Source: Babesia bigemina
Taxonomy: Eukaryota
Direction: 5' to 3'
Assembly: GCF_000981445.1 (NCBI RefSeq)
Contig: NC_027218.1
Location: 1,116,001 to 1,180,000, forward strand
Length of the DNA stretch: 64,000 nt
Positions 2,230 to 59,910 of the stretch are shown here, piece after piece. The notes under the pieces were generated by a model. That model saw only the letters and a program-made list of their open reading frames with translations, was not told the origin of the DNA and did not search any database. Every line of letters starts with the position of its first letter. The stretch's first letter is position 1. Made by a program: the position numbers and the translations under genes.

Positions 2230-2487
2230 CTACTTTGACGTCTGCTCTTGAAGTTTGGAGTAAGAAGTGGACGCTGGCGTATCGTCGACCAAGTAAGCAC
2301 GCAACTTCTTGAATCCGGGGATAGGGTACCAGGAGAGGAAAAACACGATGATGATGGCGGCGAGGATAATTGCAAGTACAACGGCGAATCTCTTCGGTCC
2401 GCAGCATGGGCATTTACAGGTGAAAAGATTAGCACAACCTTCGTCACACTTAGTGCAACCGCATTGCTTAGTACATCGCGACGCCAT
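2230..2487 (-). CDS. Small Cys-rich single-pass membrane protein, ves-island family, copy 1 (85 aa)
   Basis: MASRCTKQCGCTKC...CKCPCCG, then a hydrophobic helix FAVVLAIILAAIIIVFFL and WYPIPGFKKLR. aagATG start context. Similar to six other ORFs in the window. Confidence 0.7.
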   Translation of the reverse strand: MASRCTKQCGCTKCDEGCANLFTCKCPCCGPKRFAVVLAIILAAIIIVFFLSWYPIPGFKKLRAYLVDDTPASTSYSKLQEQTSK

Positions 2488-3428
2488 CTTACACCAAACT
2501 TCCTTTCCAATCAACCTGCAAAATAATGAACAACCTTCTAAGACGCTGGTAGCTATTTGAGATGCGATAGATTAACTGCCACGGCAGATGAATGTGGTAA
2601 TGTATTTGCAATGCTACTTTTTGCAGAATCCGAAACGTATGCCGGCAGCCCGCGTCGAATATCTGTGGCACAGTGGGTAGGCATGGAGCCACCACATACT
2701 CTATTTCTCCAAATATATAAGGCTTAGTAAATTCAAGAGCTAGAAACATTTTCATCAGAACGGCAAGCTGTAGCCTGATCAGGTCTACATACCTCCGTGC
2801 TGTAGCATCACGCAATATGAGAAAGTAGAATATTCATACTTGACATGGTGGACGGTATTATTATATTTGATTTTGTAAATATAAGAACATTGAGTTTTCT
2901 CGTGGAGATTCTGCGCTACCAGTAATAGATAGTTCGGGGCTTAACTATCGATCCGGAAGCTGAAAATGAGAGAACACCCCGAATATACCGATTTGCAGAT
3001 TTTTGTGAGAGTACATTGTGTAAATATGCTTGTCTGACATTCAAACTGCCTATGTTAACATCGTTGTCGTCCGTTCCTCTTAACGAGGTGGCTGAACATG
3101 TTATACGGATTTGTCATCCAAATGTGCCCTAATATCACCAACTGCTGCCATACGTTCCAATCAGCACATGTAAATCAGGAAAAAGAACTGGAAAATCATA
3201 GAACACGTGATTCAGGTTCAACGGTGTTTTCAGCTTTCGTATTCACAGCCCTAGAGTCGATCTCCCAAGTAGGGATACAACGACCATAGCTGAAGGGTCT
3301 TTACCGTTCTACTACATTAGCATGACCATCTGCGTTCTAAAAGCTCAATACTACAAATGCACCTTCATACTCAAACGCTTCATCGGTCATCATCACATCT
3401 CGTTATTATTATGTTTTCTCCCCTTGCA

Positions 3429-4538
3429 GTGTGCTATGTGGCAACGTGCCTAGGCCCGGTTTTCGGTTTTGCGGGACTGCCGCCTCACGCCGATACCGGT
3501 TGCGGGTTCCACGTCGGTCGGTTGCCGATCGTCACTGGTGCCATCCATCCAGTTTGGGCCCGAGGGTCTTCTACGGAATCGCAGTCTTCTCTGGGTTTCA
3601 TGTCCTTCATTAGATAATGCATAGCCTTAAAGCTTATCTGCTAGATGAAAGCTCTCCGCTTTATATCCTCAACCACGTCTCTGTATGTCCTCTTCTTGTA
3701 TGCCCGTTTCCACCAGGTCGTCTTCGTTGACAGTCCCGTTCTCCACGGTTGTGAAGGCATTCTTTATACCATCTAAGATGATGTCTTCTGGTAGAGTATG
3801 CCCTCAGCCCTTATGAGATTCCTGGGTTTGGCATGGCACATTCCATCATTTCTATAGTCCTCCAGTTGCCCTCACTGCTATTCACTCATACCATCGCCTT
3901 TCAGCTAGATAAATGTTGACTGTGCTTCACAGTTACATCAGTAAAATTCAACATTGAGGTCACATTCTCATCAATCACGCATCGAGGATTCCGTTCCCTG
4001 TAAGGGATGCGGAGGGGTGAAACGCCATTACCCTTTCCGCTTCTCATTAACGGCATGCTCACATTCGTGTAATCTCCGCCCAGTTGCTCGAGTCACATTT
4101 AGGAAGACCGTTTTAGTATTATGTTAAAACCCTGCAGTGGCGGTGGGGCAGAGCAGTAATTGCAGGGAAGCGGCATCGAATTTGATACGAATATTAACTC
4201 GCAGCTTGCATCACCTCTAGCTGTTTCTTAAGGAGCTTGAACATTGGGCTGTATTCGGGAGGCTTCAGGGCACCTCCTAAGTGGATCATTTTTTCGAGCT
4301 GTCTGGGTGCTGGCGGTTGTGATTAGGTGAGCGAGGCGGATGCTAGTTTTGTCGTGAATATCGAATACTACATCAACTGAAGAGATGCTTAAGTAATGTA
4401 GTTTGGAGCACTGAGAGAGGAGTTTGCCAGTCGTCCAGTGCGTATCGCAGTTTTTGCAGGGGAGTCAAGAGACTGCAACCTCTAATAGTTGGTGGGTCTA
4501 TTAAGGTTGCGCATACGTTGAACTTTAGTTTTTGAACT
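3429..4538. repeat. Conserved ves-upstream block, copy A
   Basis: Aligns by eye with 25761-26873 and 43620-44708, e.g. cattgaggtcacattctcatc, cagttgctcgagtcacatt, gattaggtgag. Confidence 0.9.
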
Positions 4539-7500
4539 ATGGCGCCTAAGAAGCTCACTGACTGTCCGGAGAATCTCCGTGAGTCCATCGACTGGCTCAT
4601 ACAGGTTAGGCATGGAGGTGATGGTAACGGTCTTGAGCATTTGGGCAAAGCTTTGAAGAAGCTTATTGACGAGGCTATTGAAAATGCTTATACAACTAAT
4701 GTCGATGCGCTTCTCAAGCTCCTCAAGTCTGCCAAGTCTTACACGTGTTGTGAGGATAAAGTGACTAAAATCGAGACACTTAAGAAATCCGAAAAAGCTG
4801 CTGAAAACAGATTTGATGAGATTAAGAATAACTGTGAAAGCATAAGAGGTTGCTCAAAAAAACACCTTGACTCTTCCCAACAAAAATCCTTTGGTGAGAT
4901 TGAGTCCAAGTTGGATCAGCTTAAAAATCTTAAAGAGAGTCTTAAAGGCATCACTGATGAAACGAATTGCAAAGAACTTCTGACAAATTTATGTGATGGT
5001 TTGGAAACCTTCCTCGGCTTCAATCCATCTTCCAAAGGTTACACTGGCCAGGGCATCGTGTACGGAGATCTTGACAGGTTATGCGACGGGGTGATGGCGT
5101 TCTTTCTGGGCGTGTTGGAGAGTGTTAAGGATGATGACGACGTTATGACATACGACTCCAATAACAGTATGACAAAGCTTATAGACACTTTAAAAGGGAA
5201 TATACGTAAAGGTAATGTCTGTTTCAATGATTCCATGATCAAGGTGTCGACGTGGTTGAGCAGCCACGGTGAGGAATTGGGGCTGAGAACTGGTAATGTG
5301 GTTACTGCATTACGTTCACTAAGCGGCGATATAGACACCAATATTAAGAGTGTTAAGAATGTTAATACATCCCCTGTTAAGTTTGACCAGACCGTTTCCG
5401 ATTGGATTAGGACAGTGTTGGGTGAATTGAAAAAACATCTTGCATTAACTAACAAGTACATTTGCGGGCTTGATGAGTCTTTGAAAATTAAGTTAAAAAC
5501 TGACTTTGATCAAATCTCCACGGAGGTTCATCGTCTGCGGACGAGTGCTGATAGAGACGTGGACCAGCTTAGGAAGTTGGGTAAGATATTGGATAGTCGG
5601 CTTGAATCGCTACGAATCAACATTGACAAAGCGGTGGCAAAACAAGTTAAAAAATTTCACCACTTAATGACGGAACACATTGACATAATTCATGGACAAA
5701 TTCACAAAATTGATAAAATTCTTAAGGAGTATGTCAGCGGGTTGGAGGTGTGGATACGAGAATCGGAGAGGATTTTGACGAACACTTTGGATAAAATTGA
5801 AACGATATTGGATTGTGTAAAGGATGGGCGTAATGGAAATAAAGGAGCAGGCAAAACAACCCTCATCACTGATAAATCCACTGAGATGAAAAAGAATGCG
5901 GATGCATTGTGTGGTGCGTATCAGAAGGTCAAGGAGGATGTTCAGGCACAAGCTCTAAAAGCAGTTGCTGAGATTGGTGGATTGGAAAACGTATATAAAA
6001 ATAAGCTCAATGAGATGAAGAGTAAAATTGATAGTGCGGTAACGGATGCTGCGGCGGGAGTAAAGGGATTGCATAAGGAAGTTGAAAAAGGGTTAGAAGT
6101 CTTGCGATCTACGACGATAGATAGACCGATTCAGGCGGTAATTCGAAAGCTTAAGGAGGGTATTGGGGGAGCTAGTCGGGCTGATATGGCCATTTCTATT
6201 GTTCAAGATTTTTATCTTGGTCTTGGAGGTTCGGATGATGCTCCAAAGCTGTATGAATGGTCTAATAATGTTATGGCTGGCGGTGACCTCAATAATGCCA
6301 TAAAGGAATTGCAGCAAAATGATATCGCATTCAAAAGTTTCAAAGCAGTATTAACGCAGCTGGGGACCTTTCGAGCTGGTGTTGGTGGTGCGTACGGCAA
6401 AACGTTCTTCGATGTTCTAGAGAGCGACCTTAAAGCACAAGTGAAAGCGGCTATAGGCCAAATTAAACACGCTACAGGGCAACTCAATCTATTCTTCTCT
6501 GCTTTCCATACGCAGATAACAGGTAATTCAGATGACACAGTTCATGGGAAAATACAGAAGATTAAGAAGCAGTTTGACAATGATTTTGATACCAATATAC
6601 CAGGTGAACCTAAAATTAAGACAGAGGGAAGCATACTGCAGGATTACGAAGACAAAAAAGGCGCTCTTCAAACTGCGATAAACAAAACATACAATGAGGC
6701 TTTCGAGGCGGCCAACACGATGGTCACCAACATCACCAAAAATACTTTCTTAGGTTTACATAGAGAAATTACTGCTGAACTCCAAAAAATTGCCAATATT
6801 GTTTCTAATGTATCGGTAGGTAACGACAAAGGCCTCAAAGAAATCTTGACCGAGCTTAAAAATACAAAAATTATTGCAGATCTTACCGGAATAAAAAAGA
6901 ATTTTGACACATTGCGAACTAAATTCCTGAAAGACTTGGATACAGCAGTTGACACTTTGGTGGTAGATACGCTTTCCAAATTATCCGAATCGACAATAGA
7001 ATCCATAAATCAGTATCTGAAAGATCAAGTAAAACATACAATCGACGATATTAAAACCGACGCCCTCAAGCGCTACGTCATTTCTAAAACCAATGAGCTT
7101 AATGAGTTAAAAGATTTTGTCGAGAAGAGGCGCATTGCCACCCAAAAAACTATAGATGACGATTTGGCGTCTGGAATAAAAGGATTATTAGATAATATAA
7201 GTACGTGGTTTTACAGAAATGATGACATGAAAAATGTCACCGTTTTAGTATCCATAGCGGAAAAATTTAAGGACCTAAACAACCTTCTTCACAAGTATGT
7301 TAAGTTCCAGTATGATGGCTTGGAAGTAGAAGACGCTAGAGAAGACGATGTTGATGATGTAGATTCGGATTCGGCATCGTCATCCATTGTTGCACCACCA
7401 GCAATTTCCGGCGGTTACAAACCACGACCGATAGTGCCAACATTACCACCAAATGATACACGTGCACCTCAACCTGCTGGACGTGCAGGGTATTCTGGTC

Positions 7501-9905
7501 CAGTTCATTCTTCGGCAACACCCACAAGCCAAGTGTCTACCTCCCTGCACGCGCATAAAGATCCAATTGCGGAATATTTTGTAGCACTTCATTACTATTG
7601 TGACGGACTTTTGTCAAAGATCTCTGCCAATAGGTTCACTACGTATTTTGTATCACAACGTAACGAATTTGAAAAGTTCCTCAGCGCTATGCGTCCTTTG
7701 AATTTCTCCGGTCTTGGGAGCCCGTTGCTCGACGCCCTCAAATCCGGCTTACAATCGCTTCTCATGGAACTTGGCATGGTTTACATTTCATCATACGATG
7801 GAGCGGCGTATGATTTCAACTGGGCCATTGACGGGAATTCCGAGAAATGCGCCAGGGTGTTACTGACCATACTCGAAATTCTGTATAACGATTTGCATAA
7901 ATTATGGAGGGACTGTAAGCCTGATGGTGAGTGGAACTATAATAAAATTAATTTAAAAACGGACCTTGGAAAATGTTTCAAGCAGTGTGGTTATGATGTA
8001 TCCGAAGAAGATGATTCACATGAAGGACAGCTGAGAAATAAAGAAGAGTTTAAGGGTAAACATATTTATGACCATCTCAACAACTATATTTCCGGAGCTT
8101 TCAGAAATGAGCATTTCAAAAGTTGCAAATCAGTTAAACAAAACAACTTGAATGTCGTGAACAGTATTAGCTGTTTGTTTAGTCATCTTAAAGAATACTA
8201 TAAGGCATCCCACGTCAAACATATTTATTCACCTAGGTCACCGTGCAGTATCTTTGACATGATGTGTTGGCTGACTGGCTTGCGATTTAATCCTATGAAA
8301 AACAAACTTACGGAGTACATCGCAAAATCGTATGAAAACGAAACCGATAGTGAGACTAAAAAGATGTGGTCTGACTTGTTTGCCGTACGCCTACCCGGAA
8401 TATATAGACCAACATACAACGTACTTACTACTATCCTTGGACACGGTCATGCAGACGGTATATACGCCTGCGACTTTGTCAACAATATCTTCAATTTGTC
8501 ATATCCATCCGATCCATCGAAGTGCTTTGACCTTCTAGTATCAATATTGTATAGAGTGTATGAGCAGCTTTATTTCCTGCATCAACAATGTAGATATGGC
8601 AGAACTCTGAGTGGTTGGCGTGATTGCTGGTATGGCAAGGGTGTCGCTGGGTCATCATGGCAATGCAACAATAAGCAATCTCTCAACCAAGAATGTGACC
8701 AAACATGCAAGGAAGATTACAACTGCGGTATTAAATCGCCCCTGCAATCCTTCCTTGAAGACGGCCTACCAGGGTTCCTCCCTCATTCCATAACCAAGGT
8801 TGGTTGTGGAATCACCTGTTCAATGCCCAAGCACTCTGGCATCCCATGTCGGACGCCTATGGGCTTTACAAACATAGCTCTCAAAGCGTCGCATACCCAA
8901 AAAGGTCAAAGTATCTACAGTGTGCTAGATGATATCTGTGGGTATTCAGATAAACCGCTTAGCAAAATTTGTAGTTATATGCTATGCATATTCCGTACGC
9001 CTCCGAAAACACTAGGTGACATGTTTGCCTTCTACTGTAATTTCCTCAATGGGTGGGCACAAAATGGTAAAAATCATAGGAGTTTTGCTTTCCAAAGTGC
9101 CGTCAATGGGGCTTACTTTGGAGAAATATATTCCGATCTAGACGTCAATTCAATATTCACCAACGATAAATCGAATAACCATATCAACGGCAACTTGGCG
9201 TGCCTCATTAGTTGTGATCTATCGTACACCCCTGGGCAACAATGCGGTTCATATCTAAGACCATTTTATCGTGACATCCGGGTTACATTCCCTACAGAAC
9301 ATAATAGGCAATACCTTTCGTGGGTCGTATACCTGACGGAGACGTTCTACAAATTGCTTAAAGAATTGTATGAAGAGTGTTGCGGAAATTGTAAAGCAAA
9401 GGGTACAATTTGCCATGAAAAAAGCTGTTATCAGAATTGTCCGATAAAAAAATCCCCAAATCCGTCATCCACATCCGAACATGACGCTTCTTGCAAGTCC
9501 ATCGTTCACTGCACGTCTACGCTTCCCACCCTATGCAAATATGGTCTCTACTTTGGAAGCGCAAAATGGATTGCTGGCAAAGAAAGCCACAGGGTGAAGC
9601 GGACGTGCAATGATTTTTGCAGCGCCTTAGCAAACGTAATTTCGGAACAATCTGTCCTGGCCAGATTAGTACATAACACAATCCCGAATTTCCTATGGGC
9701 CATCCGCGTCCCTTTCTTCCACACCACCGTCGCCCTCTGGCTCCTCTCGCTGCTGTACCTCATCTATGTCTGCGTGGGAAGATTAGACCTCCTCCACATC
9801 AAATCGCATTTGCACTCACCCTCATCACATCGCATCGCCGCGCAATCACTACTTGCCGCCGCGCGTATCAACAAGCTCAACAAAGTGCTGTACCTGCAAC
9901 CTTGA
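4539..9905 (+). CDS. ves1-like variant erythrocyte surface antigen (ves1b/'Ebh-like' type), 1788 aa, intronless
   Basis: N-term KKLTDCPENLRESIDWL; GYTGQGIVYGDLDRLCDGVM; CGIKSPLQSFLEDGLPGFLPH; C-terminal TM helix and RLDLLHIKSHLHSPSSHRIAAQSLLAAAR...YLQP. Confidence 0.9.
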   Translation: MAPKKLTDCPENLRESIDWLIQVRHGGDGNGLEHLGKALKKLIDEAIENAYTTNVDALLKLLKSAKSYTCCEDKVTKIETLKKSEKAAENRFDEIKNNCESIRGCSKKHLDSSQQKSFGEIESKLDQLKNLKESLKGITDETNCKELLTNLCDGLETFLGFNPSSKGYTGQGIVYGDLDRLCDGVMAFFLGVLESVKDDDDVMTYDSNNSMTKLIDTLKGNIRKGNVCFNDSMIKVSTWLSSHGEELGLRTGNVVTALRSLSGDIDTNIKSVKNVNTSPVKFDQTVSDWIRTVLGELKKHLALTNKYICGLDESLKIKLKTDFDQISTEVHRLRTSADRDVDQLRKLGKILDSRLESLRINIDKAVAKQVKKFHHLMTEHIDIIHGQIHKIDKILKEYVSGLEVWIRESERILTNTLDKIETILDCVKDGRNGNKGAGKTTLITDKSTEMKKNADALCGAYQKVKEDVQAQALKAVAEIGGLENVYKNKLNEMKSKIDSAVTDAAAGVKGLHKEVEKGLEVLRSTTIDRPIQAVIRKLKEGIGGASRADMAISIVQDFYLGLGGSDDAPKLYEWSNNVMAGGDLNNAIKELQQNDIAFKSFKAVLTQLGTFRAGVGGAYGKTFFDVLESDLKAQVKAAIGQIKHATGQLNLFFSAFHTQITGNSDDTVHGKIQKIKKQFDNDFDTNIPGEPKIKTEGSILQDYEDKKGALQTAINKTYNEAFEAANTMVTNITKNTFLGLHREITAELQKIANIVSNVSVGNDKGLKEILTELKNTKIIADLTGIKKNFDTLRTKFLKDLDTAVDTLVVDTLSKLSESTIESINQYLKDQVKHTIDDIKTDALKRYVISKTNELNELKDFVEKRRIATQKTIDDDLASGIKGLLDNISTWFYRNDDMKNVTVLVSIAEKFKDLNNLLHKYVKFQYDGLEVEDAREDDVDDVDSDSASSSIVAPPAISGGYKPRPIVPTLPPNDTRAPQPAGRAGYSGPVHSSATPTSQVSTSLHAHKDPIAEYFVALHYYCDGLLSKISANRFTTYFVSQRNEFEKFLSAMRPLNFSGLGSPLLDALKSGLQSLLMELGMVYISSYDGAAYDFNWAIDGNSEKCARVLLTILEILYNDLHKLWRDCKPDGEWNYNKINLKTDLGKCFKQCGYDVSEEDDSHEGQLRNKEEFKGKHIYDHLNNYISGAFRNEHFKSCKSVKQNNLNVVNSISCLFSHLKEYYKASHVKHIYSPRSPCSIFDMMCWLTGLRFNPMKNKLTEYIAKSYENETDSETKKMWSDLFAVRLPGIYRPTYNVLTTILGHGHADGIYACDFVNNIFNLSYPSDPSKCFDLLVSILYRVYEQLYFLHQQCRYGRTLSGWRDCWYGKGVAGSSWQCNNKQSLNQECDQTCKEDYNCGIKSPLQSFLEDGLPGFLPHSITKVGCGITCSMPKHSGIPCRTPMGFTNIALKASHTQKGQSIYSVLDDICGYSDKPLSKICSYMLCIFRTPPKTLGDMFAFYCNFLNGWAQNGKNHRSFAFQSAVNGAYFGEIYSDLDVNSIFTNDKSNNHINGNLACLISCDLSYTPGQQCGSYLRPFYRDIRVTFPTEHNRQYLSWVVYLTETFYKLLKELYEECCGNCKAKGTICHEKSCYQNCPIKKSPNPSSTSEHDASCKSIVHCTSTLPTLCKYGLYFGSAKWIAGKESHRVKRTCNDFCSALANVISEQSVLARLVHNTIPNFLWAIRVPFFHTTVALWLLSLLYLIYVCVGRLDLLHIKSHLHSPSSHRIAAQSLLAAARINKLNKVLYLQP

Positions 9906-10633
9906 TACATCACCTCACCACCACTCACCTAACTCACTTAACTAGCAACCCACCGCCTAACCTAATACTCACCCAACTATATTACCTAATGTATACTCAG
10001 CAATATGGCAGTTACTGTAGTTCATGCATTAATAGGTTCGTGGTTTGGGATGTCGAGTTGTGAGTTAGCTGTGAAACGTGCCAACGTCCTCCCATGGTTT
10101 CAGTGGGCAGTGATGTTGGGTGGTAGGTTACTGATGTAGGCTAATTACAAGTCTTATGACTAGTGAAAGTGCGCCGTGTTCAACGTGATTGTTTGGCATA
10201 TTAGTCTTCTGCTCTGGTAGGCAATTAATCTACCCGGGGCGCTAATGTGATAGCCAGTAGACGGCGTGGTTGACAGTGATAGTAGCAGCGTCAATGAGAA
10301 ACGTATTAACCAGGTATTATAGCTCACTTAGACCGTCATTAGTGAACAAATGTAACAGCAGTCTTAGGCACTGCCAATGTCGGATAGTCTGATGGATGGA
10401 GTTGACTCAACGACTGACAACGGTTGACCTGCATGCCACGGCCAGGATACCGTCTACATGCGTAGCTTAGAACGTTTTGATGTTGTGATAGCTGCGTAGT
10501 CATGATGTGACTTGCAGTGCGTTGGACGGCGGTCATCTGGCTGCTACCGTAACGCCGATGGGGGACTTTCAATGTCCGAGCCTGAGGTACGTCATTCGTG
10601 GTTTGTGCGTTAATTGGAAGAGACAGAAGAACG
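9906..10633. repeat. Conserved ves-downstream spacer, copy 1
   Basis: Homologous to 32013-32733, 51585-52310 and the reverse complement of 59911-60641 (C-rich tail, gatgtcgagttgtg, ggttgacctgcatgccacggc). Confidence 0.88.
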
Positions 10634-11089
10634 ATGGTGCTAGATTGTAGTTGTGTTACTAGTTGTCACTATTTGGGGGACTGTAGTTGCTGTCCCTGGT
10701 GTTGTGCCGGATGTAGTGGTAGTGACCAATGCAGTTCATGTATAGCATTAAACAGTGAGCGCAAAGAAAGCCAGGAGTGCCCTCTTTCCGTATGTGTGAA
10801 TCAATGTAGACAGTGTAGCAATCCCGGATGTAAATGCCCATGCCCATGTTGTAAAACTAAAAACCCAGATACACTCTCTGCCAACTGCAATCAACATTCC
10901 ACTCGGACACGATCTGATTCTACTTTTGCCGTTCAATCTAGTGCCTCAACTTCCCCCAGAATAACCCTTTTTACCACCACGATCGTTCCCATCACCATCA
11001 TTCTAGTAATTATCATCGTCATATGCATTATGAGCGTCTTTCGCATTCGGACATTCCACAAGGTCCGCAGTTATTTCGCCAGCCGATGA
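10634..11089 (+). CDS. Small Cys-rich single-pass membrane protein, copy 2 (151 aa)
   Basis: CSCCPWCCAGC...CKCPCPCCK, Ser/Thr linker, TM IVPITIILVIIIVICIMSV, then FRIRTFHKVR. Confidence 0.75.
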   Translation: MVLDCSCVTSCHYLGDCSCCPWCCAGCSGSDQCSSCIALNSERKESQECPLSVCVNQCRQCSNPGCKCPCPCCKTKNPDTLSANCNQHSTRTRSDSTFAVQSSASTSPRITLFTTTIVPITIILVIIIVICIMSVFRIRTFHKVRSYFASR

Positions 11090-22852: not shown

Positions 22853-23191
22853 TTAGGCATAGAATCTCCGCCTACGAAATTTTCTTTTGAAGATTGGAAT
22901 CGAATTCCAGCAGACGAAATATATAAAGTTGGCTATGATTACGACGGTTGTAACTAAGCCGCCGATACAATAGGCCATACACGTCCCACATATTTCCCTT
23001 TTCTTTTCTGCCTCCAAACAGAATTTGCAACTACAACATCCGTCACAACACCAGGGACAACATTTACATGGTTTTTTGCCACCGGATTCGTTCTTCTCAG
23101 GTTTTTTGTTATCGCATCCTGGTTCCTCATTATCTCCTTTTTTACATGTACACTCATCACTTCCAGCTCTCTGAGGCGCTACCGGACTCAT
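22853..23191 (-). CDS. Small Cys-rich single-pass membrane protein, copy 3 (112 aa)
   Basis: KPCKCCPWCCDGCCSCKFC, TM IGGLVTTVVIIANFIYFVC, basic tail IPIFKRKFRRRRF. tgcag-gaagATG start context. Confidence 0.72.
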   Translation of the reverse strand: MSPVAPQRAGSDECTCKKGDNEEPGCDNKKPEKNESGGKKPCKCCPWCCDGCCSCKFCLEAEKKREICGTCMAYCIGGLVTTVVIIANFIYFVCWNSIPIFKRKFRRRRFYA

Positions 23192-25422: not shown

Positions 25423-25677
25423 ATGAAGAGCGGGGATTGTAGTTGTCGAGGTTCAGGTGACGGTGGAACGGGGAAGAGGCCGTGTACCAGCTCTTGTTCG
25501 GGTTGTGGGAGTGGGTTAGATTGTATATGCAAATGTTGTAAACCTCTCCAATGCGGATTTTATGGCGGGTTAGTTACCTTACTCATTGTAACATTCACAT
25601 GCTTTATTGTCTTTCGCATATGGCCATTCCACAAAGTCCGTGGCTGGCTAGATAGCAAGCGAAAGATGTCAGCCTAA
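25423..25677 (+). CDS. Small Cys-rich single-pass membrane protein, copy 4 (84 aa)
   Basis: CICKCCK, TM GGLVTLLIVTFTCFIV, FRIWPFHKVR. Upstream 39-nt GT-AG intron-like segment at 25357-25395. Confidence 0.72.
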   Translation: MKSGDCSCRGSGDGGTGKRPCTSSCSGCGSGLDCICKCCKPLQCGFYGGLVTLLIVTFTCFIVFRIWPFHKVRGWLDSKRKMSA

Positions 25678-47700: not shown

Positions 47701-50700
47701 AAATTGAAGCGGCTGTTAGCGCTATAGAAGACAGAGCAAAAAAAGATGAATTTGATCAAGTAATCTCCGACATTGACACACCATTCTCAAAACTCACTGT
47801 CGCCATCACTACTAAATCAGTGTTCCAAGACGATGTAGCCGCCCGAGAAACTTATTTTAATAACCTTAAAGACGTTATTAATAATACACTAGAAAACTTA
47901 AAAATTGCATATCACAAAGCATATCAGAGTTCAGCAAAATCGTATCTTCAAATAGCGATTGGAATGATTAAAAAAAAGGTTGGAGATGCGGAATCGGCCT
48001 ACGAGTTGGCGGTTAAGACTAACATTCTTACCATTAAGAAATTGATTAATGGGGTTGAACATTCAAAGTTGACACAAGCGGAAACTAGAAAGAAATTAAG
48101 CAAAGACTTTGATGAACCTTTCAGCACATTGATCTCTGCAGTCACCACGAATTCTGCCTTCACGAACGATGCAACATCCCGTAAAAGGTGCTTTGAACAA
48201 TTACAAACTGTAATAATCCACACCATGGAAACCCTCTCCGCCGCATATGAAAGGGCCTATCAGAGCGCCGCGAAGACGTATCTTAGACAAGAGACAAAGA
48301 AACTTAAGGAAGTTCTTAATGCGGCTGAAGACCGTTATGTGAAGGCTATAAAAGGAGATGTTGAAAAAATTATGACTGCAATTTCAAGCATCAAGGATTC
48401 CCTGTTCAAGAGTGCAGATCATCGAAAGACTTTGGAAACATTGTTCATCGAACCATTTCGAAATCTGCAAGAGACTGTTAAAAAGAATTCTGTATTCAAA
48501 ACAGATTATGAATTTCGTAATCAATGTTACAAAAAACTCGAATCAATCAGTGTTGGAGTAATTAGAACACTGGTTGAAGCTGCGAACAAGTTTGAGAATT
48601 GTGTTGAGCTTGCAGATCACTATTTGAAAGAAGCCCTCAACAATGCAAAACGTGGTATTAAAACACATGAAAACAACACACAGGTGCAAGTCAAAAAAAG
48701 TTTCGAAGACATAATTGAAGACGTCTATAAAATGTTTACCGTAGAGTGCAAAGCGCACTTAAGAGCCTTAAAGGATTTGGTTAAGGAGCAATTGAAAGAG
48801 ATAAAAACGATACTTGCTTATGATGTCGCCAGTGGAGTCAAAGGTATGCTAAAAAAACTTGGAGGTCAACTTTTGAAGAAAGTAAGAGAAATTAGTTCCT
48901 CTCAATCTACACTGAGGTGGGCGGCGAAGAATCTTCGGGATGGATTTGAAGAGTTTTTTGACGACTTTGAACAATTTGATGAAGTGCAGGAGATGATGGC
49001 CAACATTAACAAAGTGAAAGAGAAATTGAATTTACTCTTTCGACAACTTGAGGGTTCCCAGCACTTCGACCATCTCGTCACAAACAAACGCGAGGACTTT
49101 GAAAAGGTGCTAGAAGCATTCTCAGTTGATACATTCTCAGATGCCACCAAAGCTGTCGTATCACCCCTCAAGAGCGGCCTCCGCAACTTCACTGACCAAC
49201 TCGGCCACGCGTACGTGAGTAGGTATAGCGGTATTAAATTCCACGGTGACTTGTGGAAAACTAAACAGGTTGAGAACGGAGAAAATCCCAACAACTTCAA
49301 GCAATCTGTTGAAAAGTTAACCACTGAGGGCCGTAACTGCGCCAAGGTCTGCCTGACGATTCTCGACATTTTAGATCGTGACTTGGTAGAATTAATGAAT
49401 AAATGTGATGGTGGTAGTCAGTGGAATTGCTATAATATCCATTTAGGTCAAGTCAAAAAACCTCATGAAATACATAATCGACAAAACACGGGAAAAATAC
49501 AAAATCCGCTCGGGCTCTTTTTTAGGGACTGTGGATACACTGTTCCATCTGATGAATTGAAGAACGATGCCCAGTTGAATAACAAGTCGGAATTCAAAGG
49601 TAAGAATATTCATGATTTATGTGTCGAGTATATTACCGGCTTGACGGAAGGAACGAAAAAGGTTTTGAACTTGCATTACGAAGTCAAGGATAACAAAATA
49701 GAATTCTACAAACTTCTTAAGGTTTGTTACACTATGTTCGACAAGTATCGCTACGTCAGCCACCTTAAGCATATTCCCATCGCGAGATCACCTACCAATG
49801 TCAATGAAATGCTACATTGGTTTACCGGCCTTTATTGGAATCCAGTTCATAAGAAACTAAAAGATCGCCTCAATAGCTTGCTAAAAGAGCAAATCGATGA
49901 GTATCAGTTGCCAAGTACGAATATACCGGCTACCATGCCGTATGGAGACTACTGGACCAGGGGAACTGTGAACATCATGGACTTCACTAAGGTATTCGAG
50001 AATGTAATTACACGTTCACCTAGGATATTAGTGACGATCCTGGGACATGGTGACGCCGATGGACGATACGCCTGTGACTTCTTCACCAACCCAGATGATT
50101 TACTGTACCCATCCAGCCCAGATCAGTGCTTAGATATGCTCGTTGATATAGCGCTTAGATTGAATCACCAAATTCGTTTCCTGTACAAAATGTGTCACAA
50201 CGGCAAACGCAGCAGTGGTTGGCGTGATTGCCAATATGGTAAGCACATCGCTGGGTCAGCATGGAACTGCAACACGTACCAATGTAATGAGCAGGACTGC
50301 GACCAAAAGCACAAGCCAATCGCCAACCAAACGGGTGACCAAAATAGCAAGTGCGGCATCAAGTCACCCCTCCAGTCCTTCTTGGAAGATGGTTTGCCAG
50401 GCTTCCTACCACATTCCTTCAAGAAGCCTGGTTGCAAATTGGAATGTTCGGTGAGCAATCACAGAGGCATACCGTGCAAAACGCCGATGGGTTTCCGCGA
50501 CCTCAGTATAGTTGCCTCTCACAGACGAACCGGCCAGGCTCTTAGGAAAGTGCTTGATGGGTTCTGTGGTATAACTAACGAATCGTTGAGCCTACTTTGC
50601 ACCTATTTCCTATGCCTACTGCGCCGCCCACCGCAGACACTGTGTGACATGTTCGCATTCTACCACAACTTCCTGGAGCAGTGGACGGGTGCTTACGGGA

Positions 50701-51584
50701 ATCACGCCGATGTCAAGAAACATAAGAAGGAAGCATTCGAGAAAGCCGTCAAGGAAGCCAACTTCAGTATCGAGGACACCACGTTAGACGTCACATCCTT
50801 ACAAGATGGAAGAGATCACGGCAAGCACTACGATGATGGCAACAAGAAGCATACCGGCGACCTGTTTAGTCTTATATGTTGTGAACCTGGGAAGCCTGCG
50901 ACACTACCATGTGGGTCATATCTGCAGCCTCTGTCTCTCGACATCCGCTGCGTTTTCTCCTCAACGTACGCTTCACTGTACATGTCGTGGATTGTCTACA
51001 TGACTGAGACCTTTTATAGCTTACTCAAAGAATTATATGAGAAGTGCTGCAACAGCTGCAATAAGAAGGGACGGAGATGTTACGACCGCACTTGCGCTGA
51101 GAAGTGTGAAGTGAAGTATACATCAAAGACAGACTTCAAGACACTCAAGGATCAAAATCACACCAATGAATGCAGCTCAATCGTCAACTGCCGCGATACC
51201 CACGCTACTATATTCGCTGCCGGATTCACTTTCGGCAGTCCTTTTGAAATGAGTGGCGAGAAAAATGACAACACTAAACGTACTTGCCAAGATTTTTGCG
51301 AAGCGTTGAAAAAGGTATGCTCCGACAGTTCTGTGCTCGCGAAACTAGTTCACGTCACGATTCCCCAATTTTTATGGCAGATCAGGGAGAAATTCTTCTG
51401 GACTACCGTGGCTCTCTGGTCCGCCTCATTCCTCTACCTCATCTATGTAATGGTTGGCAGACTGGATCTCCTCCACATCAAATCGCATCTGCACTCACCT
51501 TCCTCCCATCGCATCGCCGCCCAATCACTACTCGCCGCCGCACGTGTCGGCAAAATTGCCAAGATCACCTACCTGCAACCTTGA
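44709..51584 (+). CDS. ves1-like variant erythrocyte surface antigen, 2291 aa, with internal ~110-aa repeats
   Basis: KKLTDCPENLREAIDWL N-terminus, conserved Cys-rich C-terminal domain, TM and YLQP tail. Confidence 0.9.
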   Translation: MAPQFKKLTDCPENLREAIDWLIQVRHGNGENGEGLTKLSQALTTLIQDAIDKARESIQHKQDKLDCSKELSLGFTYCRQLDGQIKQAEEEIKMLHEGDKAMKDKLNSKINGIKTLKENCIKSHYIDEQRRSSLSQEIEDATKVVRKLEEFTKDLDNSKNDNNILSKLCSGLETFLGYTSGNYTGQGIVYGDCDRFRDAVLMFFHGVLDSVKENESVMTYDKDPNNNLSSALLRIKELIHHGHGAFYQAFEAVSRALQTWDEDLAMRTRNVNKQFSNLKDVLENEVNEFSKEQGNSLTEQFARWDETAAHLVDMTDAADKMIGDLDSGLRKKLEPPVTAIREAVKMLKRSSSDNGMIKVVDTLQKTLDNIPGEVEKFIEDNANKTVEKHKNQVEDFKKNVKRDMNALRDAYVKEHLAVAQTDLSMAVNTFRKNAKNLGGLKNTVMHKAIEAIDKVFDNVDNVVADNGTLNALASDPINVQTKLIYQELNTEWKPSDGWKSLRSNIGRPQDIFTNTYETGLKSLVNKTKNDLDKALECASSNAKNLGGLNNEAVRAVISNIQKKLEEVDTQITSMKQLMGLESDFMAGQISTIAHTKNQGATSVSIHVDDLNVTIGKADAIFNTTHNNTLEELAGKSQKTLAHIFAKAQECIETHGGLNNAVVVSVMREIETKLETEADRVVTIEKLKQLKTGFMEGQIMKITKAKNREGITLSSHINDLSETIGEPEVNFKTYQAALESLVEQTEQTLKKAIENAKTYLETPQTSLQRKMLDAYGIVLGTSNKTRMGEAAVLAGRVGDAIKQLNVFAKKFTGKHNIEGKFPNLDSYGEALKEDVRRKLETHGNDDDEISRWITSSTSNLISSVFKEANEQISKVDNAYRVAVDRELNAIKLKITEFKNKAEKNELGNFHSIIHSNFQSINRAIDTNSAYQEDHKSRTDYFTKVIEIINHTVDSLQTAYQKAYQSSAKSYLSGAIRKIKVAVQGAESQYKLEMTQLRSQIEAAVSAIEDRAKKDEFDQVISDIDTPFSKLTVAITTKSVFQDDVAARETYFNNLKDVINNTLENLKIAYHKAYQSSAKSYLQIAIGMIKKKVGDAESAYELAVKTNILTIKKLINGVEHSKLTQAETRKKLSKDFDEPFSTLISAVTTNSAFTNDATSRKRCFEQLQTVIIHTMETLSAAYERAYQSAAKTYLRQETKKLKEVLNAAEDRYVKAIKGDVEKIMTAISSIKDSLFKSADHRKTLETLFIEPFRNLQETVKKNSVFKTDYEFRNQCYKKLESISVGVIRTLVEAANKFENCVELADHYLKEALNNAKRGIKTHENNTQVQVKKSFEDIIEDVYKMFTVECKAHLRALKDLVKEQLKEIKTILAYDVASGVKGMLKKLGGQLLKKVREISSSQSTLRWAAKNLRDGFEEFFDDFEQFDEVQEMMANINKVKEKLNLLFRQLEGSQHFDHLVTNKREDFEKVLEAFSVDTFSDATKAVVSPLKSGLRNFTDQLGHAYVSRYSGIKFHGDLWKTKQVENGENPNNFKQSVEKLTTEGRNCAKVCLTILDILDRDLVELMNKCDGGSQWNCYNIHLGQVKKPHEIHNRQNTGKIQNPLGLFFRDCGYTVPSDELKNDAQLNNKSEFKGKNIHDLCVEYITGLTEGTKKVLNLHYEVKDNKIEFYKLLKVCYTMFDKYRYVSHLKHIPIARSPTNVNEMLHWFTGLYWNPVHKKLKDRLNSLLKEQIDEYQLPSTNIPATMPYGDYWTRGTVNIMDFTKVFENVITRSPRILVTILGHGDADGRYACDFFTNPDDLLYPSSPDQCLDMLVDIALRLNHQIRFLYKMCHNGKRSSGWRDCQYGKHIAGSAWNCNTYQCNEQDCDQKHKPIANQTGDQNSKCGIKSPLQSFLEDGLPGFLPHSFKKPGCKLECSVSNHRGIPCKTPMGFRDLSIVASHRRTGQALRKVLDGFCGITNESLSLLCTYFLCLLRRPPQTLCDMFAFYHNFLEQWTGAYGNHADVKKHKKEAFEKAVKEANFSIEDTTLDVTSLQDGRDHGKHYDDGNKKHTGDLFSLICCEPGKPATLPCGSYLQPLSLDIRCVFSSTYASLYMSWIVYMTETFYSLLKELYEKCCNSCNKKGRRCYDRTCAEKCEVKYTSKTDFKTLKDQNHTNECSSIVNCRDTHATIFAAGFTFGSPFEMSGEKNDNTKRTCQDFCEALKKVCSDSSVLAKLVHVTIPQFLWQIREKFFWTTVALWSASFLYLIYVMVGRLDLLHIKSHLHSPSSHRIAAQSLLAAARVGKIAKITYLQP

Positions 51585-52310
51585 TAAATCACCTCACCGC
51601 CACTCACCTACTCACTTAACTAGCAACCCACCGCCTAACCTAACACTCACCCAAATATATCACCTAATATCTACTTAGCTATTCGGTAGTAGATGTAGTT
51701 CACCAATTGATATGTTTGTGGCTTGGGTTGTCGAGTTGTGCGTTACCTATGAAAAGTGCCCCACGTCCCCCCATGGTTTTAGTGGGTAGTTATGTTGGGT
51801 GGTAGGTTACAAATCTAGGATGCTACGGCGTGTTGTGATAAGTGAAAGCGCGTCGTATGCAACGTGATTGTATGGTGAGATGGCTAACATGTTTGTTGCT
51901 AGGCAATGAATGTAGCTGTTGTTAGCCGATGTGATGGCCAGTGGACTGCGTAGTTACGTGGCATTGGTGGTAATAGTGTAAGTGATAAGAACGTTAATCA
52001 AGTGAGGTGGCTCTGTTAGACACAAATCATGACACAAACGTGATGCAATTTAGAAGCGGCACTGGTAAGTTGAACGGAATGTGAGAGCTGAAGTTGATCG
52101 AGCAACTGGCACCGGTTGCCCTGCATGCCACGGCGGGGATATCATCCACATGCTTAACTCTGTGGTACTTCAGTTTTGACAGCGGCATACTATTGAAGTA
52201 ACTGAATGTGCACTGGGTGGCGGTAGCCCGATTGGTTGGTGCTTATATGGGAGGCTGTCAGTGTATTTGGGTGAGGTACGGGGTTTATTGCTTTGTAGGT
52301 TGATGGTAAG
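51585..52310. repeat. Conserved ves-downstream spacer, copy 3
   Basis: Homologous to the other three spacers. Confidence 0.88.
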
Positions 52311-52751
52311 ATGGGCGATACATGTGAATGTGGTAATATATGTAAGCAAGAAATTTGTATATGCTGTCTCAGGTGTTGTGATGGCTGTTTGGATGTCAGG
52401 TGCCTTAATTGCATTCTCGTAAAATCGATCAGCGAAGGCGTACTTACATGTAGGCCTGAGGACTGTCAAAAAGTGTGTAAGAAAAAACCCTGTGAATGTG
52501 AATGTTGTGTAGGCGAAGATGCACGCTTTGCTGCCGCTACCTCCTATTTCACCAGTCGACAGCATTCCATCGAAGCCGCTAGATCCCCAAATATTTCCGC
52601 TTCCACGGGTCTAAGCGCCTATATCATCGTTACAATCATAGTCATCCTCACCGCCGTATGCGTTATGAGCTTCTTTCGCATTTGGCCGTTCCACAAGGTC
52701 CGTGATTGTTTCGCCCGCAGATTGCCGTTTTGCATCGCATTTTATAATTAA
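52311..52751 (+). CDS. Small Cys-rich single-pass membrane protein, copy 6 (146 aa)
   Basis: CICCLRCCDGC...CECECC, TM YIIVTIIVILTAVCVMSF, FRIWPFHKVR, tail LPFCIAFYN. Confidence 0.78.
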   Translation: MGDTCECGNICKQEICICCLRCCDGCLDVRCLNCILVKSISEGVLTCRPEDCQKVCKKKPCECECCVGEDARFAAATSYFTSRQHSIEAARSPNISASTGLSAYIIVTIIVILTAVCVMSFFRIWPFHKVRDCFARRLPFCIAFYN

Positions 52752-53922: not shown

Positions 53923-54690
53923 TCACGTTTCAACCGTATACTTACACACAATGCCGTCTAAGAATTCCAACTGGGTTTTTAGAGGTTCGTAATATTTGAG
54001 GAAATCCCTACAGGTTCCTTTGGGGATAAAGTCTTTAAGGTTGAATCCCACGGATGCAAACATCTTGCCTACGGAACGTTGGCCAGTACCATTAAGTTTG
54101 CTGTCTAAATTGGAGCGCTTATTACACTCACTCTGGATAAAATTAAGGTCGTCGCACAGGGGAATGAGTAAGGAGATGAAAATATCCGCGCATTCCCAAG
54201 GGTTTTCGGCACAAGAATTATCCCAAGTTACATCTCTTCCATACGATTCAACATACGTTGAGTCATTAATAAGGTTTAGCAAAATCAATTGAATTCTAAT
54301 AGAAGCTTTTGACAGGTGACGATATAACTCATTCATCTTCACCTCTGTTTCCTTTTCATCCATTAAATTCAGCTTGATCATAACGTTATCAACCCAAGAA
54401 GTTGGTTTTGTGAGCCCCCCACGTCTAGGCAGATGAGATCCTTTTATAATCTTGTTGGCTCCATCATCGAAGTCCCAATCATCGTAATCTGCATCATCGG
54501 AGAGCACGTTGGACACGTTGCCTCCCTTCATATTTTTTACATCTGGAAGGTTTGCTGCACCACGTAATAGTACAAGATACAGAGCCTTGGCGAGAATCGG
54601 TATTCCACTGCATCTTCTAACGGCCACGATCCAGTCAAACGACTCCTTCAGGTTTGACGGAGCTTCCAAAAGACTGTCGTACACAACCAT
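53923..54690 (-). CDS. Short ves-related (ves2-like) protein lacking the C-terminal TM
   Basis: MVVYDSLLEAPSNLKESFDWI matches the ves N-terminal motif. YVESYGRDVTWDNSCAENPWECADIF resembles the ves Y.S.Y...W...CA block. Confidence 0.7.
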   Translation of the reverse strand: MVVYDSLLEAPSNLKESFDWIVAVRRCSGIPILAKALYLVLLRGAANLPDVKNMKGGNVSNVLSDDADYDDWDFDDGANKIIKGSHLPRRGGLTKPTSWVDNVMIKLNLMDEKETEVKMNELYRHLSKASIRIQLILLNLINDSTYVESYGRDVTWDNSCAENPWECADIFISLLIPLCDDLNFIQSECNKRSNLDSKLNGTGQRSVGKMFASVGFNLKDFIPKGTCRDFLKYYEPLKTQLEFLDGIVCKYTVET

Positions 54691-56773: not shown

Positions 56774-57535
56774 TTATGAGACGCCACGTTGACAAATAGG
56801 GTCCTCGTCAAAGTAATCGGCGTCGTAGAGTGAGAGCATTTTCCTGCTATTAGTGAGCAGCGCCTTGACGTCGATGAGGTGTGAAGCCTTAGACCTGATG
56901 GCATGAGAACAGAGGTACAGGATGTCCAGGCGGTACAGAATCGTGTATGCTAGGAGGAGTATTGCGACCGACCACAATGCGATGAGCGTGTAGAGGAAGG
57001 GCATCCTGACCCTGTAGAGGAAGTCGTCCATGCAGGTCATGAGTGATGCGATAGGCTTGCCGTTAACAATGTCCTGCAGCTTGGCGATAACCTGTTGACA
57101 TGTGAGTGTCGGCTGCGGTCCCACCTCCGGCGGCGTGATCCCGTGTAGGTAGAGGAGGGGAAGGGCGGTGGAACACAAGTAAGGGGATGAACACTTGATA
57201 CTAACGTGCTTCTTGAGATCATAATGTAGTCTTTCGAGTGCCTCCCACAGTCTGTCCGGCAGGTACACCGTCCAGCTGAGGTAGGTGTGGGCGAAGGCAT
57301 GAGAGTACAGGGAGTAGGCTCCGTACGTTATAGGCGAGCAATGTGGATGGCAGTTGGCAGGGTCACTGCCGCAGCCAACCAGTGTGGACAGGAAATTTGG
57401 ATGGTCATTGTCATTATTGGGCGTGCAGATGTTGTTGAGCAACTCTGTACCCCAGATGCCACGGACAGTGTCCAGGTCGGTGTAATCAAGATGGTCCCAG
57501 TCGGGATGTTGAGTGCGGAGGGAGTCACCCAGCGA
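56774..57535 (-). pseudogene. ves1a-type 3' fragment with a frameshift
   Basis: CHPHCSPITY..YLSWTVYLPDRLW, TM, SKASHLIDVKALL is a ves1a-type tail. The upstream SLGDSLRTQHPDWDHLD is in another frame (shift near 57450). No large 5' ORF. Confidence 0.72.
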
Positions 57536-59526
57536 TTATATTATGCATGATATTAAAACAGTAAGGGACTAATTTTGTTTTCTCAAAACGCATTAGGCAG
57601 GACGATTATCTTGTAAACATCCCACCTACCTGAGGGGCAGGAAGGCAATGAGCCCATGAATACTGTAATACCAGATATTGGCTGGCATAAGAGGCTGGAG
57701 CAAGGACGGCAGACGGAATTACCTATGAGTTGTCTGAGTAGAATGCTATACAGCCCTTCTGACCCAGCATTGTGGCGCAGCCAAGCCGTCTCCCCTAGGA
57801 GCTAGGGAGCATCTAAGGGTCCGCCACCGAAAATATCGCCAGATATCACAACAGTACGCTTTACACCACATAAACAACATGCTTAGCAGATCAAAAAGAG
57901 ACTGATCAATTCACTCCACATTCATGTCTACATTATGTTTTGGATGCTGTAGACGTAACTAAGGAGCAGTGTCTCGTATTAGATATGGTGAGATAGACAA
58001 CATGTGTCGATCTCTATGTACGCATGTATCCTTGAGTGCGTAACTGTATACCCGCCCACCACGTCCTAGTAGCCCTGTGCCATCTACCCACTGGCTTTGC
58101 AATCCGGTTGACTAATTGGATCTCTCAGTCGGCGGATCTGATTGCTAGTCCACCAAATAATACACGCTTCATCATCATGTTATTATTATACCGCCCATTC
58201 TGGCAACTACTTATGTTTCAGCCGAAACGAGGTCGGGGACATTGCAGACATGAGGCGTATCTCGGATATTTCGCTCACTCTTGAAATAGATTTCAGTTCC
58301 CACACGTCCATTGCATTTAGAATTTCTAGCATTGCCATATGAGTATTCTATTGGTTTCCCTCACCCGCAGTCAATGAAGCGGTCAGCTGTGTCGGTGAGG
58401 ACGATGACGGGTGACACCTTGGAACCAGCACTTCAACATCATCCGTGTTGCACAATAAAAGCGTTCTAAAACAGTCGATATATTGCGCTGTTAATATATC
58501 ATGATCGGTTAACGCCATCGCCATATGCATCCCAGCGGTGGTCTGGTGTAGGCAATCACTGCTACCGTTGTTGTCAAGGTTAGTGGAGCCAGTGAAGTGG
58601 AGTGAAAGTTGCCGTTAAACATCTGTAATTGTGCGTGATGGGCATTGCCTATAGTTCAAATCGTGAACAAATACGCTGATGGTTGTACCCCACCTTACTG
58701 ATTCATCTAGTGACAAAGTCAGACGGAAGTCAAGCGCAGACGTAGATTCACAAAACGCTGGTAACTACATTGCACCCACTTACCCCAGTTAATGAATAAT
58801 CGCAACACAAGAAACACACCTCTAAATCAAAAAACGGAGACAGGACGTTTTATACTTAACTTAGGACGCCAAACCCATGCGCCAAGTATCACCATGAAAA
58901 TCAAACTGCGTAATTGAGCAACAATGTTTTGTGTCTGAGCTAGACGGTACTTCGAGTAGTAGTTACAGATACATGCTGTGGATATTGCGGATGTTGAGTT
59001 ATAGGGATTCCAGAAATTATGAGACAACCATAAAAAATAGTGACAGACGCAGGATAAATAAGGACAGCCGGCATGAAAGAATGATAGATTGCACGTTGAT
59101 GACACATACAGGCGCTTGTAACTACATTAATCAGCGGTTGGTGAATGAGTGACCAGCGGTGTAAGGTGAGGTGATGACTGGTTGCTGCTAGGTTGGGTGG
59201 GCTAGGCTGTTACGGCACTAGGGTAGCGATTAGGGGTACTATTACGGTTGTGAATGTAGTCAAGTCGACGATAATGTAGGAGACTTGTGCTCTGATGTAA
59301 TAGAGGCGTCTAACAGTGACTTTTCGTTCGAGGACGACGTACTCCCGGTCGCCGTGATTATTATCGTTCCATTTGCCAATGAGCGTTTGACGATCCATAC
59401 AGACGTAACTAGTGAAGGTCACGCCGATGCACGGTTATGAGACAAATTCTAATGCATTATTAGACAAAGAGTGTGCCGTTGATAGCTGACGCCAGGAGCT
59501 AAGTGCGATAATACAAAGTATTGGAC

Positions 59527-59910
59527 TTAACTATAGAATGCGATGCAAAACGGTAATTTGCTGACGATATATTCGCGGAAGTTGTGAAACGCTCTAATGC
59601 GAAAGATGCATAAACCGAACAGGAGGATGAGGGCGATGATTACGATGATTATTATGGTAGCGATGTCAGCGGCGGCACGCCGTGCACGTTTACTTTCACA
59701 ACATGAACATACACAATTTGCTTCACATTCGGTTCTACATTTCGTATGGTTACATTCATTAATATCTCTGCTAGACACTTTATCTCGACATACTGGACAT
59801 TTATTTTCAGCAGCTTTGCACCAATCACAACACAACATACAGCATATACAATTATCTCGGCCACACTTTTTGCCGCTTTTAATACACTTACACGTCTCCT
59901 GATCACTCAT
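59527..59910 (-). CDS. Small Cys-rich single-pass membrane protein, copy 7 (127 aa)
   Basis: CICCMLCCDWC...CVCSCC, TM IATIIIIVIIALILLFGLCI, FRIRAFHNFR, tail LPFCIAFYS. Confidence 0.78.
   Translation of the reverse strand: MSDQETCKCIKSGKKCGRDNCICCMLCCDWCKAAENKCPVCRDKVSSRDINECNHTKCRTECEANCVCSCCESKRARRAAADIATIIIIVIIALILLFGLCIFRIRAFHNFREYIVSKLPFCIAFYS

Follow-up and report, generated by a model that had tools for sequence, protein, structure and literature searches.

Small cysteine-rich membrane proteins encoded at a fixed distance behind ves1b-type genes in Babesia bigemina

Results and discussion

Seven small genes in a 64-kb window

We analyzed a stretch of 64,000 nucleotides from Babesia bigemina (RefSeq assembly GCF_000981445.1, contig NC_027218.1, positions 1,116,001 to 1,180,000 of the forward strand; hereafter the window, with positions counted from its first letter), in which conserved genes recognized by Pfam (CCT chaperonin, tubulin, TBC GAP and adaptin) alternate with long open reading frames (ORFs) of ves1b type, and we describe a family of small, cysteine-rich proteins with one transmembrane (TM) segment, of which the window encodes seven copies (Table 1). 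What is known of antigen variation in B. bigemina, the agent of redwater fever in cattle, comes from genomics only. An initial annotation, made from the letters alone, had proposed the family, and its coordinates and motif counts were reproduced exactly: each copy is an ATG-to-stop ORF, CxCCxxCCxxC occurs in five of the seven and CxCxCC in six, the tail motif is FRIx[PTA]FHxxR in five (FRI subtype) and WxxIPxFK in two (W-tail subtype), and five start in the context aagATG. Every protein has one hydrophobic 19-mer (Kyte-Doolittle 2.2 to 3.4) followed by a net-basic stretch.

Seven ORFs of 80 to 171 amino acids (aa) with at least 10% Cys and a TM-like 19-mer were observed in the window, compared with none in 59 and one in the remaining one of 60 block-wise triplet shuffles. 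The reading frame is open in all seven, and nearly all alternative frames contain stops. A leave-one-out hidden Markov model (HMM) recovers six of the copies (E <= 1.7e-8); the seventh, 22853-23191, was missed and is retained for three reasons: it has a CCxWCC motif, it ends in a W-type tail, and its upstream DNA matches that of 2230-2487 (z = 26). An HMM of all seven, run against the 1,972 six-frame stop-to-stop segments of the window, found no eighth copy (next E = 0.029). None of the seven proteins has an N-terminal hydrophobic stretch comparable to the TM segment (judged by hydropathy, not by a dedicated signal-peptide predictor), and no in-frame upstream exon was found for any of the ORFs, in agreement with the earlier proposal that they lack a signal peptide. 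We regard the seven ORFs as very probably functional genes.

Table 1. Coordinates of the family members, cassette parts and other ves-type features in the window
Position	Strand	Feature	Description
2230..2487	-	Family member, W-tail subtype	85 aa; short head (9 Cys); divergently oriented from the first ves1b-type gene
2490..2700	-	Non-coding upstream block	Common only to the other W-tail copy; likely promoter / 5' UTR (z = 26)
3428..4538	+	Conserved non-coding block upstream of ves1b-type ORF 1	78-81% identical to 25760-27035 and 43827-44860 (BLAST)
4539..9905	+	ves1b-type ORF 1 (putative ves1b)	Single ORF; C-terminal TM and conserved tail
9906..10633	+	Cassette spacer 1	728 bp, non-coding; invariant 15-mer with TGCATG at 10428-10442
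10634..11089	+	Family member, FRI subtype	151 aa; full head; 46-aa Ser/Thr/Pro stalk
22853..23191	-	Family member, W-tail subtype	112 aa; first head subdomain only; most divergent copy
23192..23430	-	Non-coding upstream block	Common with the copy at 2230
25423..25677	+	Family member, FRI subtype	84 aa; short head; ends 83 bp before a ves1b upstream block
26874..32012	+	ves1b-type ORF 2	
32013..32733	+	Cassette spacer 2	721 bp; 15-mer at 32546-32560
32734..33117	+	Family member, FRI subtype	127 aa; full head; almost no stalk
44709..51584	+	ves1b-type ORF 3	
51585..52310	+	Cassette spacer 3	726 bp; 15-mer at 52120-52134
52311..52751	+	Family member, FRI subtype	146 aa; full head; 34-aa stalk
53923..54690	-	ves2-type short ORF	255 aa; N-terminus like ves1b-type N-termini; without C-terminal TM
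56774..57535	-	ves1-type C-terminal segment	Divergent tail; 28% identical to the first ves1b-type C-terminus
59527..59910	-	Family member, FRI subtype	127 aa; full head
59911..60641	-	Cassette spacer 4	731 bp; 15-mer at 60101-60115
60642..64000	-	ves1b-type ORF 4	5' end outside the window

A fixed position behind ves1b-type genes

The window holds four long single ORFs (1,118+ to 2,294 codons) with a common TM-plus-tail C-terminus and, in the three complete ones, a common N-terminus. They have no VESA Pfam match; the label ves1b-type is based on their architecture, on the likeness of their N-termini to that of a ves2-type ORF and on a tail motif that we take to be ves1b-like. Behind all four (4/4) lies a same-strand copy of the family, at stop-to-ATG distances of 729, 722, 727 and 732 bp (ORFs 1 to 4), held within 10 bp, and this fixed ves1b cassette with its conserved non-coding spacer is new here. 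All seven copies are within 0.7 to 3.7 kb of a ves ORF; the most distant, 22853-23191, has its nearest ves ORF 3.7 kb away and a TBC-domain gene about 1.2 kb away. The description of the family as confined to ves islands therefore understated the relation for the four cassette copies and slightly overstated it for 22853-23191.

When the cassettes are compared by BLAST, homology runs continuously from the ves 3' end through the spacer to the ATG of the small gene, breaks over the part encoding the N-terminal, cysteine-rich head, and resumes at the TM segment and tail. Mean pairwise identity across the four is 69% over the last 400 bp of ves, 75% over the spacer, 63% over the head, 74% over TM and tail and 63% over the next 250 bp (from lenient global alignments, which inflate the low values), whereas the ves1b ectodomains of the same loci barely align at the DNA level. 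No conserved ORF was found in the four spacers. An invariant 15-mer containing TGCATG, presumably an ApiAP2-type motif, lies 186 to 204 bp before the small ATG in each spacer; being homologous, the four copies count as one occurrence. A comparison of indel phase was uninformative, the coding control itself having only 4 of 25 indels in multiples of three.

An acceptor-like YAG/G stands 12 to 30 nt before the ATG in six of the seven copies. Its phase varies and three copies have an in-frame stop after it, so that a 5' untranslated region (UTR) intron fits, not a coding exon, and we consider it a likely 5'-UTR intron acceptor. An upstream coding exon, either as the source of a signal peptide or as a splice to ves1b, was rejected on the same two features. 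The roughly 1 kb upstream of each complete ves1b-type ORF (3428-4538, 25760-26873, 43827-44708) has donor- and acceptor-like motifs near the ATG, and is a candidate ves1b promoter with a 5'-UTR intron. Because both this upstream block and the spacer are conserved, the duplicated unit consists of upstream block, ves1b, spacer and small gene; as judged from the alignments, ves1b and the small gene downstream of it are one duplicated cassette. PMC4066756 describes lineage-specific insertions of ves1b between conserved genes, with which such a unit agrees.

Beyond the window, we compared the positions of 20 ves1b and 12 ves2 locus tags curated in PMC4066756 with those of 47 family tags. A family member lies within three tags of 5 of the 20 ves1b tags and of 0 of the 12 ves2 tags (expected 1.9, permutation p = 0.038), and within two tags of 4 of the 20 (p = 0.037), although this is a weak proxy that ignores strand and distance and relies on an annotation that seems to miss copies. 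The two VESA1B loci that dominate the published proteome, BBBOND_0303890 and 0305310, each have a member two tags away (0303910 and 0305330). Proximity to ves genes, which the initial annotation had offered as a check, was found in the window and, by the weaker proxy of tag order, for some of the curated ves1b tags.

Ten pairs of family tags are at most four tags apart, consistent with copies that flank or alternate with large genes. Elsewhere, BBBOND_0313380 (5,076 bp, named 'Ribosome-binding protein 1' and likely a ves1b gene) is followed after 739 bp, on the same strand, by BBBOND_0313390, a 936-bp hypothetical gene that is blood-specific (reads 159/103/72 versus 0/0/0) and is not among the named family matches (PMC9806345). 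The second slot of the cassette may hold other passengers.

Protein architecture and coding constraint

The full head, as read in 12 members, has a fixed cysteine spacing, with a first part with 11 cysteines (C-x1/2-C-x3-C-x5-C-x-CC-x2-CC-x2-C-x4-7-C-x2-C), a linker of 12 to 17 residues, and a second part with seven (C-x4-C-x3-6-C-x4-6-C-x-C-x-CC). All 12 full-head members of the largest subtype, which has an FRFPV tail, contain exactly 18 head cysteines, and short members of the family retain one head subdomain only. Within this largest subtype identity is 27% over non-Cys head positions, 40% over the stalk and 96% over TM and tail. The composition of 19 heads is 25.5% Cys, 11.8% Lys, 2.4% Trp and 4.9% Tyr, and long stalks are mostly 30 to 50% Ser/Thr/Pro. 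Net charge is higher on the C-terminal than on the N-terminal side of the TM segment in 61 of 69 proteins (means +3.1 versus -0.6).

In the four cassette copies the proportion of nonsynonymous differences (pN) is below that of synonymous differences (pS) both in the head (0.46 versus 0.73, the latter near saturation) and in TM and tail (0.26 versus 0.35), and second codon positions are the least changed. Of 240 Cys pairs common to the seven copies, 65 differ synonymously. These codon comparisons show that the sequence is constrained as coding DNA and that the head changes more quickly than the non-coding DNA on either side of it; positive selection is not indicated.

Structure models are of low confidence (predicted local distance difference test [pLDDT] 67.5 and predicted template modeling score [pTM] 0.29; pLDDT 53 for the head alone), and Foldseek returned no match in PDB. 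A wider structural search gave a best Z of 4.2, from long helices only, a PDB sequence search gave weak TM-level matches only (E >= 0.047), and the leads from an Atlas query with homologue P0042 were all sub-0.9. A new fold is not demonstrated by any of these results.

Family size, range and annotation

An HMMER scan of 1.84 billion representatives gave 35 matches at E <= 0.001 and word-based searches gave 1, 3 and 47, the union being 62 database homologues; with the seven window copies the family has about 70 members, so that building a profile, as initially suggested, extended it well outside the window. Of these homologues, 61 score E < 1e-3 against a 25-sequence profile that includes 18 of the 62, and P0063 scores E = 0.0026. 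By name, 59 are B. bigemina 'hypothetical proteins', one is from B. ovata (P0038) and two are unnamed (P0019 and P0037); those of B. bigemina are spread over four chromosome-scale records and several small contigs. The B. ovata counterpart is intact and matches a divergent member, BBBOND_0309710; it bears an automatic LRR/Ig name for which Pfam gives no support. In a tree of 30 members most branches are unresolved (5 of 27 starred), and divergent members and the B. ovata counterpart lie, with weak resolution, outside the main subtypes.

Many of the database models appear to be faulty. Exact matches in the protein collection exist for 0 of the 7 window proteins, the full head motif is missing from 41 of the 62 models, and 27 of the 62 start with peptides resembling off-frame translations of the spacer or start region, 23 of these 27 being without a full head. 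We infer that many models are mis-spliced and that their loci also have the spacer; RNA data could prove some of them right. P0048 and P0051 may be duplicate models of one gene. Four others (P0007, P0030, P0039 and P0059) each have two tandem TM-plus-tail units, as expected if gene prediction had joined neighboring copies or if the 3' part had been duplicated in tandem.

No description of the family was found in open texts, subscription papers and unread supplements being outside the search. The main texts searched contain none of six member tags, the examined supplement of PMC9531838 likewise lacks six family tags, and the cluster table of PMC5660447 returned no BBBOND tags. The published B. 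bigemina catalogue comprises ves1a, ves1b, ves1ba and ves2, and the families described in passages of PMC4066756, PMC9806345, PMC9531838, PMC5660447, PMC10463595, PMC10471129, PMC9477259, PMC6630957 and PMC10975891 are ves1a, ves1b, ves1ba, ves2, mfs, 6-Cys and ebh. The 18-Cys family may be among the 'other multi-copy genes' that PMC4066756 notes, without naming them, in the vicinity of ves loci. Short, variable proteins of this kind are likely to have been left out by published clustering thresholds (60% identity over 150 aa in PMC5660447; bit score >200 in PMC10463595 and PMC10471129). The multigene family is real and apparently undescribed. The term 'overlooked' used for it at first is apt in that its members are known only as hypothetical proteins, in models often without the full head, and inapt in that about 60 paralogues were already annotated.

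Comparison with known proteins

VESA1 has no signal peptide, one C-terminal TM segment and a conserved cytoplasmic tail (PMC6630957, PMC9477259). The 18-Cys family likewise has no signal peptide by hydropathy, one C-terminal TM segment, a short conserved tail, a variable N-terminal part and a place at ves loci, and the Cys and Lys richness of its head recalls the CKRD of B. bovis (PMC4066756, PMC6630957), a likeness of composition. Its proteins differ in size, being at most about one tenth as large. Homology to the VESA C-terminus was not detected (hhalign of seven members against five ves C-termini, probability 0.2%, E = 0.27, with shallow profiles), and the family HMM, also a shallow profile, does not score the six ves ORFs of the window, the ves2-type ORF included. 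A 'mini-VESA' origin from the ves1 3' end was considered, the tails being superficially alike (R-x-x-x-x-H), and was rejected as unsupported in view of the hhalign probability.

SmORF genes of B. bovis and ves2 genes of B. bigemina, B. ovata and B. divergens are, like the present family, small, multicopy, variable and interspersed with ves1 loci. SmORF proteins have a signal peptide and no TM segment, and ves2 derives from the ves1b 5' end and is without a TM segment (PMC4066756, PMC9477259); the family differs in having a TM segment, no signal peptide, an 18-Cys head and a fixed place behind ves1b. The initial distinction from SmORF is thus upheld by the internal TM segment, the absence of a comparable N-terminal hydrophobic stretch and the absence of an upstream exon. 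Jackson et al. report no smORF homologues in B. bigemina. No B. bovis-named protein is among the 62 homologues (two are unnamed), and SmORF is set apart here by the features just named.

The resemblance to Plasmodium RIFIN, STEVOR, PIR and PNEPs is of a works-like kind only, in a different genus and with much smaller proteins: RIFIN/STEVOR/PIR-type proteins carry a variable, Cys-stapled domain on a conserved TM segment and basic tail. No RIFIN homology was found above cut-off; one match, in 1 of 15 members, covers stalk and TM segment (E = 0.004, 17.5 bits against a cut-off of 32). PNEPs often use the TM segment in place of a signal (PMC9477259).

With metallothioneins the head has in common its very high Cys and Lys content and its CxC, CC and CxxC motifs; the family differs in being membrane-anchored, in the aromatic residues of the head and in its hypervariable loops. 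The Cys counts of metallothionein clusters resemble the 11 + 7 split of the head, and Trp and Tyr are atypical of metallothioneins. In 22 family proteins no Pfam family matched above cut-off, and no metallothionein match appeared (the seven of the window at E <= 0.05 and 15 homologues at E <= 0.1); the match to a characterized family that could have undone the initial proposal did not appear. The strongest match under the threshold is to a probable treble clef, in P0015 (E = 0.0004). By the features compared, the family is not SmORF, ves2, VESA1 or metallothionein.

A possible surface protein accompanying VESA1b

By its architecture the family resembles a small variant surface antigen, its function being predicted only. 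We give roughly even credence to the reading that its members are signal-less variant surface proteins, oriented head-out (N-out), that accompany VESA1b and are probably exported with it. The N-out topology is favored by the charge bias and by the layout of variable head, stalk and constant tail, and VESA1 offers a precedent for export in the absence of a signal peptide (PMC6630957, PMC9477259). The spacer would contain the 3' UTR of ves1b together with a promoter and a 5'-UTR intron belonging to the small gene, so that each copy would come on together with its ves1b locus. The TM segment may serve as an uncleaved signal-anchor, as proposed for VESA1, with the tail left in the cytoplasm. The cysteines would staple the head (by disulfides outside the cell, or by a metal cluster), leaving the loops free to vary under antibody pressure, and the constant TM segment and tail would bind an unvarying partner, the simplest candidates being VESA1b and its export machinery.

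A stronger version, to which we assign a rather low probability, is that the VESA surface complex is split: each ves1b would travel with a dedicated mini-subunit gene, and the 18-Cys protein would be the missing partner of VESA1B, replacing VESA1A and supplying in trans a variable Cys/Lys-rich module that in B. bovis is part of VESA1 itself. Both parts of this idea, the module in trans and the VESA partner, fit known gaps, because B. bigemina VESA is described as without CKRD and VESA1A went undetected in the one published proteome (PMC4066756), which leaves the pairing open and makes the family a candidate VESA1B partner. If it is true, the cassette would be a two-gene mobile unit of antigen variation and the family a fourth ves-linked one, of some 70 to 100 genes.

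Several results weigh against a surface protein tied to VESA1b. Three of the seven window copies are without the ves1b spacer, the two W-tail copies having a common upstream block of their own and 25423-25677 a third kind of upstream DNA, unrelated to that of the other six; and for 15 of the 20 curated ves1b tags (PMC4066756) the annotation shows no family member up to three tags away. The C-terminal tails of the window copies extend only 16 to 39 residues after the TM segment, which also fits a tail-anchored protein with a cytosolic head; 18 cysteines arranged in CxC, CC and CxxC motifs are as compatible with metal clusters as with disulfides; and the head cysteines of one short window copy are odd in number (9). 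No ratio of nonsynonymous to synonymous rates (dN/dS) above 1 was found in the cassette copies, whose head synonymous sites are near saturation, so that the codon-level check returned constraint without such a signal. A tag search of the filtered blood-versus-kinete RNA table of PMC9806345 (DataSheet_1) found 1 of 24 family tags, BBBOND_0309710, which is blood-biased (raw counts 39/25/34 in blood and 0/1/0 in kinetes) and is a divergent member without demonstrated ves1b linkage; the 366-protein proteome table of PMC4066756 contains 0 of 7 family tags. Thus one member was seen in RNA, where the initial annotation had looked to RNA and protein for confirmation, and the other tags sought were absent from the two tables. 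These expression negatives are weakened by probable strain divergence of the head, by faulty models, by a two-peptide threshold applied to small proteins and by the expected silence of most switched copies.

The same results bear on the alternatives. It is unlikely, in our estimation, that the family is an independent variant one (a merozoite, tick-stage or secretory-organelle membrane protein) that hitch-hikes with ves1b under its own regulation and has no functional tie to VESA. The three window copies with other upstream DNA, of two distinct types, would suit this account, as would the divergent members and the B. ovata counterpart outside the main subtypes, the undetected homology to the VESA C-terminus, and the cases of SmORF and ves2, which are ves-adjacent with no physical link demonstrated (PMC4066756, PMC9477259). 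Against it stand a spacing held within 10 bp, a spacer 75% identical over four loci with barely alignable ves1b ectodomains, and the blood-stage bias of the sole expressed member seen.

About as unlikely is a real but tail-anchored protein, whose head, in the cytosol of parasite or red cell, would bind Zn or Cu or be palmitoylated, with a role in trafficking or as a host-side effector and not that of an exposed antigen. Besides the short tails, this would account for a head made, in the absence of a signal peptide, in the reducing cytosol, for the metallothionein-like 11 + 7 split of its cysteines and for the treble clef match of P0015. A role as a cytosolic metal buffer, however, leaves unexplained why the loops are 27% identical next to a tail of 96% identity, and why there is a Ser/Thr/Pro stalk; the positive-inside bias puts the tail, not the head, in the cytosol (61 of 69), and the Trp and Tyr of the head are unlike metallothioneins. 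Non-functional or untranslated by-products (ves 3'-flank ORFs, or degenerate ves fragments kept alike by gene conversion) would explain the missing exact proteins and the 23 of 24 and 7 of 7 tags missing from the RNA and proteome tables (PMC9806345, PMC4066756), but are very improbable in view of seven open frames beside alternative frames nearly all with stops, pN below pS, Cys spacing fixed across loci at 27% loop identity, an intact B. ovata counterpart and undetected VESA homology.

The variable head of the family could be of importance for strain-specific immunity, and the near-invariant TM segment and tail point to a conserved interaction. Proteomic and RNA analyses on current gene models would miss much of the family, given the models without a full head and the window proteins without an exact entry.

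Other features of the window

The exact protein of the ves2-type ORF is present in the protein collection. The ves1-type segment at 56774-57535 (-), which we presume to be ves1a, lies between the ves2-type ORF and the fourth cassette and may be part of a spliced gene or a fragment. In ves1b-type ORF 3 an internal direct repeat at 47522-47947 (about 96 bp, 73% identity, 330-bp period) may explain part of its extra length. Among the conserved genes, an ORF segment at 41065-41382 (-) resembles what we take to be an HU-type DNA-binding protein.

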